The position numbers are program-made. Source: Escherichia coli (GTDB taxonomy: Bacteria > Pseudomonadota > Gammaproteobacteria > Enterobacterales > Enterobacteriaceae). Taken from it: a stretch of 64,000 nucleotides of DNA. How positions within the stretch are numbered: the stretch's first letter is position 1; each line of letters starts with the position of its first letter. The DNA is taken from NCBI RefSeq assembly GCF_045037415.1, contig NZ_CP173438.1; one strand, written 5' to 3'. This document shows, one piece after another, positions 45,501 to 51,500 of this stretch.

Positions 45501-48500
45501 GCTTTAAACCTCGGGCTTGAATTTGGATTACTGCCAGTGCGTACAACATTGGCAAAATATCAGATTTACATAAAATATATGATTTTTAATCCAGTTTTGC
45601 AATATCTTGCTGTGAAAATATGGTCTTTTGTTTTGAACGTGTTTTCGTTAAAAGCAATAAAGCTTGGCTATCAAGCTGTAGAAAAATGTGCTTCATTGCA
45701 ACCCAGCGTTCAGTAAATGTCTCAGACCAGTTTTTTGATGTCACTCCCACCAGTGATGCCAGCTCCTGGTATTCATAGGTCTTACGCCCTGCCAGCTCGT
45801 TCTTCACATCCTGTGCCGCCAGCCAGATCAACTTCTTCAAACGTTCCAGTGTTTTACCTGCAATTTTCCTGGTACCCAACAGAGTCTTAAACTCGCTCCA
45901 TGCCCACTGCGTTATGGTGACCTGATGTTCCCAGCGAACACTTTCGCTGTAACTCCACAGCAACCACGCTTTCTGATGTTCTTCGAGAGACAGAACCGCG
46001 CGGCGCCATGACGAGGTTGAGAACTCAACCTGGCTGACCAGTGCAATGGATGAACCTTTTGCGTACAACTGCTTACCGGAAATCGGCGGATTATCCAGCG
46101 TAATCATCCTGCCAGTTACCTCATCCAGAATGCGCGGCTTCTTTCGTTTGTATGTACCAGTATCAAATTGTGCATGCTCCAGCCAGGCTTCAAGCTGTCC
46201 TTTCGTTGCTCCGCTCAAATCAGCGGTAGCCACAATGAGTTGCTCGCGGACATACTGTAAATATTGGGTATTCATGCGGCAGCTCCTTTCAGTGTTTTGG
46301 CGTAATTCTTCAGTATCCGGTAATCGGTCAAAACAGAACTAGGAAAACGATATAAGCGCAGGCGCACCCAGCGGCGGCGAAGACGTTCTGCCATATAAGA
46401 CTCAAACATCATTCATCTCCCAGTTCAGTGATAGTCAGCTCCAGCTTCCCACCTTTGGTAACGGGCATCTTCACAACGCGGTAATCAACGACCTGAGCAT
46501 CATCCAGCCAGAAACCTGCTTTGGTGAGTGCGTCAAAAGCGGCCTTTTGCAGATTATCAAGGTCACGGCGACGGCGATCCGGCATGTGGCACTCAATGCT
46601 GATTTTCACAGGAATAGCCAGGCCGATATCCAGCATTGCGTTTTTAATGATTCGGGCGACATTATCGCGGTATGCCTGCCCCTCTGCGCTGATATGCGTG
46701 CGTCCGCGATTATGGCGGTAATAGCGATTATTGCTCGGCGGCCAGGGTAGTGTGATGCAGTAAGTATTCACGCCTTAATTACCCCCTCTTTCAGCCAGAT
46801 AACCTGTGTTCTCGCCATACCTTCCAGCGCACATTCTTTTGCATATCCAGCGTCAACAAAATGCGTGCGACGGTCGATTTCGTCGTGGCAGGCAGAACAT
46901 GCAATGGTGGCAATCAGGTCTGGCGGTTTGATACCGGTACCGCACAATCCAGCCAGCCGGATATGTGCCAGTACTGACGTTTCAGGATTGCCATTACATA
47001 CGCCAGGGATTCTTACCTGGCATTCCCGACCACGCGCTGCTTTTCTCAAGTCAGCCATGATTCCTCCTTGCTGCCAGTCGCAACCATTTTTTATCAACCA
47101 GGCTGGCGGTATATCCGAGCAGTGTTGGTATTTCGGATGGTTTCAGCTCAGGCTTACGCTTACGACGATTTGGTACTCTGTAGATGTGTCCGTTCATGAC
47201 ACGAATAAGCGGTGTAGCCATTACGCCTCCTGCTTGTCGCGCAGCAGCTGGAACTCGCAGCTCTGCGGAATAGTCAGGTGGCAGCCAATATTCACCGCCC
47301 AGGCTTCAACCTTACACAGGAAGACATACATCTCTCCGGTATCGAGATCGGAGGTATGGCGTAACGACTGGATAGTAGTGATTTCGCCGGTTACGACATC
47401 AACCAGGTCCTTGGTTTCATAACCGAGGTATGTGTGTTTGAGAGCATCTTTTACCCATGCTGCGGTAGCGAACGATTTCCCCCTGCTGATGAGGTATTCA
47501 CTGATTTCGCTGTACCACATGTGGCTGAGTGCATTCTGGGAAAGACTGCGTTTCTCACGCCACGGTTTAAGCACCATGCGAAAGCATTTTCCGTTCTCCA
47601 GATAAGGCTGGATCTGCTGGCCGATAGCGATGAAGTTACCGCGATGCAGTTTGATGCCATCTTGTGGTAGGTTCACGCTTCACCTCCACAGAGGTCAGAC
47701 GCTAGATGCAAAAAAACGCAGGTGCATTTCTGCATCTGTGAAGGGAGAAGAGAGTTTGGATTGTGTGTGCGCATAAACGTCCCCGTTTAGCGCAGAAGTC
47801 ACCGGAGTTGTTCAGGCTCCGGTGATACAATTATGGCGAATTGATTATTCATAATCAAACAAGATAAGGTCTCAAACTTCATGCAAGCCAAGATTTATTT
47901 CTGACAGAATTATACAAAGAAGCTATTGGTCAGAATCTACTCGGACTGTAAAACATACGCATAACCTTAAGCTCTCACTTTAAGCATTGTTGAAATAATA
48001 GCCGTCAAGTACAACCTTAACCACGACTGGGATATTTCCCTGGCTACCACGAGTTGTACGGCTATTAAACTGCCGTTAAATTTAGTAAGAGAATTTCATC
48101 CGATAAGTCAAGGCATGTAAAACATGAAAATTAACAAGATATTATCATCTGCAACACTATTGTATGGTATGTCAATGGCCATGTCGGTCGGGAGTTGTGC
48201 AACACCTGTCCAGACTAATCTTCCTGGTTACACCCCGGGTGCAGATATCATTAGTGTTTCACCGACCAGAAACCAGGTCGATCTCATTGGTGATGTTGTT
48301 TATTCCCAGATAAAAGGAACTCGTTCTGTCAGACAGCTTCACATGTCAGTTCTTGTCCCGCGAACAAATGATTTAAAACCAGCCATTATTTATTATCCCG
48401 GCGGCGGATTCATGTCTTCTGAACATGACAAATTTATTGAAATGAGAATGGCTCTGGCAGAAGCTGGTTTTGTTGTGGCCGCTGTAGAATACAGAACAAT

Positions 48501-51500
48501 TCCTGATACATTTCCAGCACCAGTTGAGGATGGAAAAGCTGCAATACGTTACCTGAGAGAGCATGCCAGCAATTATGGGATTGATCCTCAAAGAATCGGA
48601 GTTCTGGGTGACTCTGCCGGTGGATGGCTTGCCCAGATGATGGGAACTACAAATGGTGACAAAACCTTTGATAAAGGTGACTTTCTTCAGCAATCCTCAG
48701 ATGTTCAGGCAGTTGCCACACTTTATGGGATTTCTGACTTGTTGAATATTGGCGAGGGGTTCCCTGAATCAGTGCAGGAGGTTCATCGCTCTCCTGCCGT
48801 AACCGAAGCCTTAATGATCAATGGCCCTGCATTCAGAAATTTTGCGGGAGCCCCCATCACAGCGTCAAAAGAAAAAGCGCTAAACGCCAGTCCAATCGGA
48901 CATATGAAAGGAGTAAAACCCCCATTTCTTATTATGCATGGTAGCAAAGACACTCTGGTTTCACCTGAGCAAAGCGCCAAACTATTCAGGATGTTGAAGA
49001 AGAACGGTGATAACGCTGAGTACGTGCTGGTAGAAGGGGCCGAGCATGGCGATAAGACATGGTATCAGCCAATTATTATAAACAGAGTCGTTGAGTGGTT
49101 TACTAAAAACCTGGGAGCGCCTATAAAAACAGCTCCCCAACAACAAAACCCGTAAGCGTCAACGGAGCACCGTATTGACGCTTATTTATTGGTGAGTACT
49201 ACGTTCCATGGCAGGAGTTCGTCAACTCGGTTGGAAGGCCATTCCGGCAGTACGCTCAGGATATGGCGCAGATACGCTTCCGGATCGATACCGTTCAGAC
49301 GGCAGGTGCCGATCAGCCCGTACAACAGTGCTCCACGCTCGCCGCCGTGATCGCTGCCAAAGAACATAAAGTTTTTCTTTCCGAGACAGACTGCACGAAG
49401 CGCTCTTTCCGCAGCATTATTATCCGCCTCCGCCAGACCGTCATCACTGTAATAACAGAGGGCATCCCACTGATTCAGTACATAGCTGAACGCTTCGCCC
49501 AGTCTGGATTTTTTCGACAGCGTACCATTCTTCTCCACCATCCATTCATGCAGCGACGTCAGTAACACTTTGCTTCGCTGCTGCCTGACGGCAAGACGCT
49601 CTGACTCCGGTAATCCCCGTATTTCATCCTCGATGGCGTACAGTTCACTGATTCGCTTCAGGGCTTCTTCTGCCGTCGCACTTTTGCTGCTGATGTATAC
49701 ATCGTGGATTTTTCGCCGGGCATGGGCCCAGCACGCAACTTCTGTCAGTGCACCACCTTCACGTTCTGCACTGAACAACCTGTCGTAACCTGTGAACGCA
49801 TCCGCCTGCAGGATACCCCGGAAGGGGCGGAGGTGTTGCTCCGGGTGTTTCCCCTGCCGGTTCGGCGAGTACGCGAACCAGACCGCTGGAGGAGATGACG
49901 AACCCACATTGCGATCATCCCGGACATACGTCCAGATACGCCCTGTTTTCGCCTTTTTCTGACCCGGTGCCAGTACCTTTACCGGTGTGTCATCAGTGTG
50001 AACCTTGCGGGTGTTCATTACATAACGGTACAGGGCATCATTCACCGGTGTCATTAACTGGCAGCACGCGTCAACCCAGTTGGAGAGTAAGGCCCGGCTC
50101 AGTTCGACACCCTGGCGGGCAAAGATTTCACTCTGACGATACAGTGGCAGATGTTCGCAGTATTTTCCCGTTAACACGCGGGCAAGTAATCCGGGGCCCG
50201 CGATACCACGCTCTATCGGGCGGGACGGCGCCGGTGCTTCAACAATACAGTCACATTTTGTACAGGCTTTTTTTACCCGTTCTGTGCGGATCACTTTCAG
50301 GGCACTGCTCACCAGTTCCAGCTGTTCAGCGCTGACTTCCCCCAGATAATCCAGCTCACCGCCACACTCCGGGCAACAGCTTTCTTCTGGCTCCAGGCGG
50401 TGTATTTCACGGGGAAGGTGTGCCGGTAACGGACGACGATGGCGCGACTGTCGCAACTGGCGGGGAACCTGAGGATCGTCTTCCCGCCCACTGTAACGAT
50501 CGCTGTCCTGTTCACGTTGTTTCAGCAGAGCCTCAGCCAGTTCAACTTCACGACGCAGTTTTTCAGAACGGGTACCGAACAGCATCCGGCGCAGTTTTTC
50601 TATCTGAGCCCGCAGATGTTCTATTTCCCGTTCATCTTCTTCGATCTTTTCTTCGGCACGTGTCAGTGCAGAGCGCAGGAAGGCTTCCGTCTCTTCAACC
50701 AGACTCAGTTGCTGGTCTTTCTGACGGAGGGCTTCAGCCTGCTCAGAGAGCAACCTTTCCAGCTCTGCGATGCGAATGAGGTATTTCTGACTCATGACCG
50801 TTTTTATAATGCGGTCAGGAGTTTTTTACAACATTGTCAGTGAGTTACGGCTGGATGTTTTTGGCTGACGCCAGTCCAGCTTATCGAGGAGCATTGCCAG
50901 TTGCGAGCGGGTAATGGATACCTTGCCGTCACGTACCGCAGGCCAGATAAACTGGCCTTCCTCCAGGCGTTTGGTGAACAGGCACAGACCATCAGCATCA
51001 GCCCAAAGAATTTTGACGGTGTCACCCCGTCGGCCACGGAAGATAAACAGGTGACCGGAGAAGGGATTATCATTCAGCACATGTTGTACCTGTTCTCCCA
51101 GTCCGTTGAAGGATTTACGCATATCGGTAACGCCGGCAACGAGCCAGATACGGGTACCTGATGGGAGTGAGATCATCTTCCCCTCCCGGTCAGTTCACGG
51201 ATCAACACTGTGAGCAGCTCTGGCGATGGATTTTCCAGCGTCATGTTACCGTGACGGAATTCCACCTTGCAGGAACTGGCACTGACTCTGGTCTGAGTGG
51301 AAGTGGATAAAGACGGCGCAATGGCCGCCACAGGTTCTTTCTGCTCATCCGGCGTTATTTCTACAGGTAATAATTCAACGCCAGTGTCAGAAGAGGTCGT
51401 TACCGGAAGACGCCGCGAAACACGCCCTTCGTTCTGCCAGAGCCTGAGCCATTTGAAAATAACATTATCATTGACGCCATTTTCACGTGCAATCTGTGCA

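Follow-up and report, generated by a model that had tools for sequence, protein, structure and literature searches.

Several described enzymes resemble the product of the gene analysed here, an esterase gene found in a lambda/DLP12-type prophage within a 64,000-nucleotide stretch of Escherichia coli chromosome (contig NZ_CP173438.1, assembly GCF_045037415.1), referred to below as the window. BD-FAE (Pfam family PF20434; structures 6XYC/6TKX) is a bifunctional feruloyl/acetyl-xylan esterase from a Bacteroidetes polysaccharide-utilisation locus (PUL), and is grouped with GH43-CE of Bacteroides eggerthii (6MLY). Its catalytic triad (Ser128/Asp237/His269) and its oxyanion residue Gly53 were set by crystallography, and the enzyme also frees acetate from birchwood xylan (PMC8165983). 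Lip_vut4 (6NKF) is an esterase/lipase from a goat rumen metagenome. In Dickeya dadantii, FaeD and FaeT (formerly in CAZy family CE10) are described as feruloyl esterases, FaeD being a substrate of the Out type 2 secretion system. Members of the hormone-sensitive-lipase family (family IV; Aes, Est2) form another related group. Finally, the NanS-p proteins are prophage 9-O-acetyl-sialate esterases of Stx phages, which are encoded in the late region downstream of stx and whose substrates are the sialic acids of host mucin.

The gene of the window very probably encodes an exported esterase of the BD-FAE family carried as phage cargo. Its product (343 residues in the window) matches the Pfam BD-FAE model over residues 80-290 (model positions 7-214 of 215; i-Evalue 7.9e-45, 153 bits), and the same match is precomputed for all close homologues. 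The match to Abhydrolase_3 is weaker (1.5e-22), and PHROG 3341, an 'esterase' family, is matched at 1.8e-129. These results bear out a preliminary description of the window, which had read the open reading frame (ORF) as an alpha/beta-hydrolase esterase, had pointed to the motifs YPGGGF (residues 90-96) and GDSAGG (residues 162-167), and had raised the conservation of the catalytic triad as a check. Both motifs are invariant or nearly so in alignments of 20 and of 70 sequences. In the smaller alignment (63-97% identity), P92-G-G-G-F96, S164, D276, and H308 are all invariant; in the larger one, which extends down to 35% identity, S164, D276, H308, G93, and F96 are still invariant, and P92, G94, and G95 are at least 90% conserved. 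When aligned with solved structures using HMMER, the esterase residues fall on the triad motifs of 6NKF and 6XYC/6TKX, with S164, D276, H308, and G93 at the positions of BD-FAE Ser128, Asp237, His269, and Gly53.

The predicted fold agrees with this assignment. An AlphaFold model based on the 70-sequence alignment (pLDDT 90.3, pTM 0.87), which replaced a model based on 20 sequences (pLDDT 74.6), shows disorder only in residues 1-26 (pLDDT <50) and in the last few residues. By sequence, the closest solved relative is Lip_vut4 (6NKF; 1.6e-37, ~33% identity), and 6MLY and 6XYC/6TKX are also among the best; Foldseek places 6NKF first (TM 0.86), followed by 6XYC/6TKX (TM 0.80, E 1.9e-21) and then 6MLY. 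Unlike the phage esterase, Lip_vut4 comes from a metagenomic library, and it was crystallised as a construct without signal peptide. With BD-FAE, the phage esterase shares the Pfam family, the fold, the Ser-Asp-His triad, the Gly-rich oxyanion loop, and a signal peptide, but the two are only 24-27% identical. Moreover, BD-FAE belongs to a xylan PUL whereas the phage esterase is a single-gene cargo of E. coli phages, and has a lipobox as well as a C-terminal tail of the proteobacterial kind.

The oxyanion loop had been described as HGGG-like, a likeness that stands for the conserved PGGGF loop and not for the hormone-sensitive-lipase family as such. Like members of that family, the phage esterase has a GDSAGG motif and matches Abhydrolase_3. 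However, Pro replaces the His of HGGG, the BD-FAE match is stronger, and the NCBIfam models GTSAG, GESAG, and GCSAG yield 54.7, 47.4, and 32.2 bits against cut-offs of 380, 430, and 410, respectively. BD-FAE is thus the better family assignment.

That the gene is accessory phage cargo (a moron in the preliminary description) is supported by its presence or absence at a fixed slot and by its deviating base composition. The GC content is 0.38 in the leader upstream of the gene and 0.45 in the coding sequence (CDS), against 0.49 in the window, which agrees with the AT-rich region noted earlier. The gene is located between ISEc23 and ylcH. It is antisense to all early-right genes, which follow one another on the minus strand in the order cII-like gene, O, P, inverse autotransporter, ISEc23, ylcH, ninB/ybcN, ninE, ybcO, rusA, ylcG, Q, and lysis genes; the antisense orientation had been correctly recognised, and holds relative to ninB/ybcN, ninE, ybcO, rusA, and Q as well as to O/P. 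The variable slot lies between the replication/ybcK genes and ylcH-ninB. Phages 4A7, 4C10, D2, 1W, 3W, PhiR47_2, and Perceval carry the esterase in it, while phage 82, PhiR30_1, and DLP12 of K-12 share the flanks and lack the gene. As relatives hold other genes there, namely ybcL-ybcM in K-12 DLP12 (positions 4894-6252 of the fetched locus) and genes for an outer-membrane lipoprotein and an acyltransferase in PhiR30_1 (positions 4268-5277), the slot can be regarded as a cargo hot-spot. In concept, the esterase resembles NanS-p, as an esterase cargo of temperate coliphages through which the lysogen might gain access to a gut nutrient, but the folds are unrelated, and the SGNH and DUF1737 domains are not among the Pfam matches of the phage esterase.

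We detected the gene in 676 (~12%) of the 5426 complete E. coli genomes and in eight phage records. Viral contigs (IMG/VR) contain essentially a single allele, with an identity of 97% or more in 43 of the 44 esterase loci and full length in 41 of the 42 complete copies. The dN/dS ratio is 0.09-0.22 among phage alleles and 0.08 relative to a plasmid homologue, with catalytic residues untouched by the changes; the values among phage alleles imply that the gene is maintained by selection in the phage. Decayed copies do occur, with a frameshift in strain A1.S1.65 and a truncation to 145 residues in one further locus. Public records already annotate the gene as 'alpha/beta hydrolase' or 'esterase', and while both the enzyme family and this type of phage cargo slot are known, the gene itself is an uncharacterised member.

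The N-terminus consists of MKINK, the hydrophobic stretch ILSSATLLYGMSMAMS, and then V-G-S-C25-A, and coincides with the disordered residues 1-26 of the model. This signal-type start, noticed in the preliminary description, conforms to a relaxed PROSITE-type lipobox pattern (charged n-region, hydrophobic h-region, and Cys within the first 35 residues). Cys25 is kept in all 42 IMG/VR copies and in the five E. coli/phage copies that we fetched. Relatives with 76-80% identity (P0002, P0004, and a plasmid copy) have a lipobox Cys in other surroundings (SAGC, STGC), and those with at most 70% identity have ordinary Ala-X-Ala ends of the signal-peptidase-I type. Given the lipobox-like VGSC end and the presence of Cys25 in every viral-contig copy, a lipoprotein is likelier than the freely secreted enzyme suggested by the earlier wording, of which only the export signal stands; judging from its sequence, the esterase is probably a lipoprotein. 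In this it would differ from FaeD, which is released through Out, and from the Dickeya proteins, which have ordinary signal peptides. Under the Lol sorting rules of E. coli, Ala at position +2 would entail transfer to the outer membrane, without inner-membrane retention.

Clues to the substrate come from the relatives. The nearest non-phage relatives (P0004 and P0002, 75-80% identical) are located 12-34 nucleotides downstream of a phenolic acid decarboxylase gene (PF05870), as is a 76% identical copy in the E. coli IncFII plasmid pSCU-105-1. A divergent LysR regulator gene is present beside P0004 and beside the plasmid copy; none was called beside P0002, and none adjoins the phage allele. In a species-level scan (one genome per species, best 80 loci), a phenolic acid decarboxylase gene is immediately upstream and on the same strand in nine of the 80 loci, which belong to Serratia, Mangrovibacter, Symbiopectobacterium (two loci), Martelella, Acinetobacter, Azospirillum (two loci), and one metagenome-assembled genome. 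Phenolic acid decarboxylases act on ferulic and p-coumaric acids. Since the two genes recur as a pair, this activity suggests that the esterase feeds the decarboxylase.

More distant homologues (57-73% identity) are found in plant-associated Proteobacteria and in gut bacteria (Sutterella, Parasutterella, and Bacteroides). Proteins of Dickeya, Pectobacterium, and Pantoea are 63-70% identical to the phage esterase over their full length, the Dickeya proteins being possible counterparts of FaeD or FaeT. A Dickeya aquatica homologue (63% identical) is named 'Ferulate esterase' by its source. The locus encodes two BD-FAE paralogues with signal peptides, 3 kb apart (4001-5032 and 8089-9032), with an MFS transporter and a LysR regulator between them. 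As a whole, this presumably represents the faeD/faeT/faeR region; faeD is reportedly controlled by an adjacent faeR. In Bacteroides mediterraneensis, the homologue (60% identical) is accompanied by a divergent AraC-type regulator and then by TolC-like and EmrA/AaeA-like efflux genes (locus positions 3066-7338), a context weakly compatible with an exported acidic aromatic product. Taken together, the family, the fold, and the genes adjoining the relatives suggest that the substrates are feruloyl/hydroxycinnamoyl or acetyl esters of plant origin, and not the host envelope or surface polysaccharide proposed in the preliminary description. Whether the enzyme is specific for hydroxycinnamoyl esters is, on this analysis, an evenly balanced matter. 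Literature searches on prophage feruloyl esterases, on lambdoid moron esterases, and on hydrolases beside prophage inverse autotransporters in ST131 yielded nothing specific to this gene.

The reading that we favour, by a modest degree of belief, is that of an exported BD-FAE/FaeD-like serine esterase which is lysogenic-conversion cargo of a DLP12/lambda-type phage and cleaves plant hydroxycinnamoyl esters. The precursor would be exported by Sec, most likely followed by lipid modification at Cys25, cleavage by signal peptidase II, and Lol sorting to the outer membrane. Carboxylic esters would then be hydrolysed by means of the conserved Ser164/Asp276/His308 residues and the PGGGF loop. Judging from family and gene context, the likeliest substrates would be plant hydroxycinnamoyl esters (feruloylated oligosaccharides, or esters of the chlorogenate type), with a possible side activity on acetyl sugars as in BD-FAE, and ferulic or caffeic acid would be freed in the cell envelope of the lysogen. 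As the gene is antisense to PR-driven transcription, it may be expressed mainly in the lysogen, where PR is repressed.

Several observations weigh against this reading. The decarboxylase neighbour is found in only 11% of the species-level homologues, many of which stand alone (such as those of Dickeya zeae, Klebsiella oxytoca, Pantoea agglomerans, and Sutterella), and beside the phage esterase itself there is neither a decarboxylase nor a regulator, nor a remnant of one or the other. Xylan is also deacetylated by enzymes of the BD-FAE family, and the closest structure bears the label lipase. We found no enzyme assay of the phage esterase or of any sequence-verifiable relative more than 60% identical to it. 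Regarding export, the strict lipobox [LVI][ASTVI][GAS]C fails at position -2, where Gly is atypical, and the feature is not absolute, since P0001 and P0005, both database representatives, have Tyr where the lipobox Cys would be. No promoter exceeds background, so that lysogenic expression is an assumption, and the window copy is devoid of the conserved C-terminal tetrapeptide.

Because BD-FAE-type enzymes can deacetylate xylan, the main rival is a general short-chain acyl/acetyl-carbohydrate esterase (acetyl-xylan, acetyl-oligosaccharide, or broad carboxylesterase), for which hydroxycinnamoyl esters would not be the physiological substrate. We consider it unlikely, if still worthy of attention. 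Besides the acetate release by BD-FAE itself, it accords with the acetyl esterases and broad carboxylesterases found among the structural neighbours in Foldseek, and with the lack of a phenolic-acid gene neighbour in most homologues. Weak NCBIfam matches to acetyl esterase, PaeX, and AxeA1 also agree with it, but all are far under the curated cut-offs, and recurrent pairing with phenolic acid decarboxylase across Alpha- and Gammaproteobacteria would be hard to account for.

A different doubt concerns the window copy alone, and stems from an insertion sequence (IS) missed by the preliminary description. ISEc23 truncates the 3' end of the esterase gene: both the stop codon and the final base of codon 343 come from the IS, and position 49155, given earlier as the end of the gene, is not the natural end. 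When 51692 is joined to 49151, a 347-residue ORF ending in ...QQQNPNANL is restored, and this intact form is annotated in E. coli SK1144 and others. The IS thereby removes the last four residues (NANL) and parts the gene from a downstream hairpin, whose T-run is on the minus-strand side, favouring the strand opposite to the esterase. The ISEc23 junction occurs in 67 of the 5426 complete E. coli genomes and in none of the 42 IMG/VR copies, while 443 complete genomes have an uninterrupted esterase/inverse-autotransporter junction. The remaining carrier genomes have an allele in which the last ~110 nucleotides of the esterase, together with the genes that follow (ybcK-emrE-ren), belong to the DLP12 type, phage 4A7 being an example. 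The esterase is near-identical between the two prophage contexts up to nucleotide ~930, and ~91% identical thereafter, which places a recombination junction inside its 3' end.

The residues lost belong to a feature of the subfamily (at least 57% identity), in which the last helix is followed by a variable linker of ~15 residues ending in [DN]-x-[NS]-L-COOH, with the terminal Leu present in 101 of the 103 close full-length homologues. This tail is predicted to be flexible (AlphaFold pLDDT ~53), and is missing from the Bacteroides homologues, from all relatives with 35-43% identity, and from the solved relatives. We know of no signal that fits the -N-L-COOH tail, and a comparison with the occurrence of a signal peptide showed no association (Fisher p = 1, with a crude heuristic classifier and few signal-less forms). 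As a tentative proposal, it could be an unrecognised sorting or quality-control signal of the proteobacterial subfamily. The window copy could be impaired or silent, and becoming a pseudogene after the IS took its C-terminal motif and terminator, a view to which we give little credence. The nearly universal Leu is lost here, decayed copies are known elsewhere (see above), and the IS form is in the minority (67 genomes versus 443). However, nothing is missing from the catalytic domain, catalysis probably does not depend on the tail, given its predicted flexibility and its absence from Bacteroides homologues and solved relatives, and the identical truncated form is present in many sequenced isolates.

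Modification of the host envelope (O-antigen, capsule, enterobacterial common antigen, or peptidoglycan O-acetyl groups), altering phage receptors or immune recognition, is quite improbable. An exported and probably membrane-anchored enzyme in a cargo slot would suit such a role, and envelope-related genes occupy the slot elsewhere (the acyltransferase and lipoprotein of PhiR30_1) or adjoin the esterase here (the inverse autotransporter). Nevertheless, homologues with 57-73% identity occur in bacteria whose surface polysaccharides are unrelated, Bacteroides and Sutterella among them; glycan-synthesis genes are not linked to them, the linked genes, where present, being concerned with phenolic acids; and the Pfam results show no likeness to the known deacetylase families (SGNH) that act on O-antigen, peptidoglycan, or sialate. 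An anti-phage defence or superinfection-exclusion gene, for which the only support is the location in a variable temperate-phage cargo slot, is scarcely credible, as no PADLOC family is matched at E <= 0.01, close homologues occur as ordinary chromosomal genes in many settings outside phages, and the protein is exported, with carbohydrate and hydroxycinnamate esterases as its nearest relatives.

Upstream of the gene, homology with lambdoid phages devoid of the hydrolase (phage 82, PhiR30_1, and others) stops at window position 47859. The interval assigned to the gene in the preliminary description (47677-49155) thus includes the esterase ORF, but its first 183 bp (47677-47859) are conserved in phages without the hydrolase and correspond to the ylcH/ninB backbone leader, and its end is made by the IS. 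The ylcH/orf33-like gene is conserved lambdoid backbone, and not cargo, despite its position inside that interval. The remaining leader is cargo-specific, with 0-6 differences across 41 viral-contig copies. A promoter belonging to the gene had been claimed, but a consensus scan found no sigma-70 site on the plus strand upstream of the esterase. The top candidate in a weighted scan (TTGTAC-17-TAAATT, 48054-48082) has a score of 8.8, which is unremarkable beside the window-wide best-per-355-nucleotide mean of 7.6 +/- 2.0. Expression of the gene would require a promoter, yet no site stands out in the sequence. A perfect 10-nucleotide inverted repeat in the leader could be an operator, as its right arm overlaps the top -35 candidate.

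Other signals were sought in the same region. The 264-bp leader has no Rfam match and a folding z-score of -0.63, and so shows no sign of a regulatory RNA. Searches for a relic of the phenolic acid decarboxylase gene upstream of the esterase, using tblastn and sensitive blastn, were blank in 47600-48200 and in the whole window, and a MAFFT alignment of upstream regions gave chance-level similarity only. In Escherichia sp. MOD1-EC7003, the stop codon of the mini-ORF that precedes the esterase is replaced, so that the ORF begins with MQNMKINK. All features are listed in Table 1.

Table 1. Positions of the esterase gene, its motifs, and surrounding features in the window (+, plus strand; -, minus strand).
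Feature	Position	Strand	Remarks
Partial isocitrate dehydrogenase (icd) fragment	14904-15071		Near sitABCD
sitABCD, iron/manganese transporter genes	16985-20434	+	Just past the tail-fibre end of the prophage
iss (increased serum survival, bor-like), lipoprotein gene	43713-44006	+	Adjoins the lysis cassette, opposite to the late genes
ninB/ybcN	47221..47676	-	Flanks the esterase, in opposite orientation
ylcH/orf33-like gene, 33 codons, upstream of ninB	47673..47774	-	CDS in an identical E. coli locus (8074-8175 there); orf33 of phage 82; ylcH of K-12
Backbone leader	47798..47858	-	Promoter-like site and inverted repeat, both facing ylcH-ninB
Inverted repeat CACCGGAG/CTCCGGTG	47798-47826	-	'Possible regulator-binding site' at the homologous position in the phage 82 record
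Promoter-like site TTGATT-17-CATAAT	47858..47830	-	From consensus scan; putative -35 and -10 annotated at homologous positions in the phage 82 record
Cargo-specific leader	47860..48123	+	264 bp, GC 0.38, upstream of the esterase CDS
Perfect 10-nucleotide inverted repeat TAATAGCCGT/ACGGCTATTA	47996-48005 / 48058-48067		52 nucleotides between arms; candidate operator
Weak Shine-Dalgarno AAGG	48110-48113	+	In the cargo-specific leader
ATG-TAA mini-ORF	48115-48120	+	3 nucleotides ahead of the esterase start codon
Esterase CDS as in the window	48124..49155	+	343 residues; lacks the four natural C-terminal residues
Signal peptide with lipobox-like end (S21-V22-G23-S24-C25)	48124..48198	+	Read from sequence
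PGGGF oxyanion-hole loop (residues 92-96)	48397..48411	+	Conserved in both alignments
GDSAGG nucleophile elbow (residues 162-167)	48607..48624	+	Ser164 codon at 48613-48615; aligns with GxSxGG of 6XYC/6NKF
Asp276, catalytic acid, in HGSKD	48949..48951	+	Aligns with the HGDxD motif of 6NKF/6XYC
His308, catalytic base, in AEHGD	49045..49047	+	Aligns with the catalytic-His motif (G-x-H-G/N) of 6XYC/6NKF
Target-site duplication, copy 1, CAAAACCC	49144..49151		8 bp, flanks ISEc23
ISEc23 (IS66 family)	49152..51683	-	2532 bp; GTAAGCG... terminal inverted repeats; tnpA/tnpB/transposase; inserted four codons ahead of the natural esterase stop
Target-site duplication, copy 2, CAAAACCC	51684..51691		8 bp, flanks ISEc23
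Displaced natural 3' end of the esterase (..P-N-A-N-L-stop)	51692..51707	+	Beyond ISEc23
GC-rich hairpin GGGAGGGC-TAA-GCCCTCCC	51713..51731		Between the convergent esterase and inverse-autotransporter genes
Inverse autotransporter (intimin/invasin-like)	51744..55652	-	1302 residues; between P and the esterase, convergent with the latter
Tandem repeat of the inverse autotransporter	~53632-54343	-	Unit ~357 bp (119 residues), 2 copies

The window is collinear with the corresponding region of strain Ecol_AZ146 (99.9-100% identity), except for one repeat unit in the gene neighbouring the esterase. This gene, the second cargo gene of the slot, encodes an inverse autotransporter, for which the top NCBIfam matches are IatC, intimin, and SinH, each under its cut-off; its tandem repeat is present in three copies in Ecol_AZ146 (4266-bp gene). 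In addition, iss is a further classical lysogenic-conversion gene of the prophage that carries the esterase. As the icd fragment is close to sitABCD and the prophage edge (coordinates of both were mapped over from the collinear Ecol_AZ146 annotation), the arrangement suggests that the prophage is integrated at icd and carries sitABCD on its edge.

It is possible, and we advance it only as a tentative proposal, that a coliphage gives its lysogen an envelope-anchored hydroxycinnamoyl esterase in roughly every eighth sequenced E. coli, many human extraintestinal isolates among them. If so, gut E. coli strains would vary in the ability to free ferulic or caffeic acid from dietary fibre and from chlorogenate, and phages would transmit this ability. 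Cinnamoyl-esterase-positive colonic isolates were described by Couteau et al. (2001). Such isolates reportedly include E. coli, and the phage esterase could be the gene behind them. Should the enzyme be a feruloyl/chlorogenate esterase, a lambdoid prophage would be spreading a diet-related metabolic trait, the liberation of bioactive phenolic acids bound in plant fibre or coffee-type esters, among E. coli, including widespread human clinical lineages, and a nutritional or detoxification class would be added to the virulence and defence genes that coliphages usually carry.

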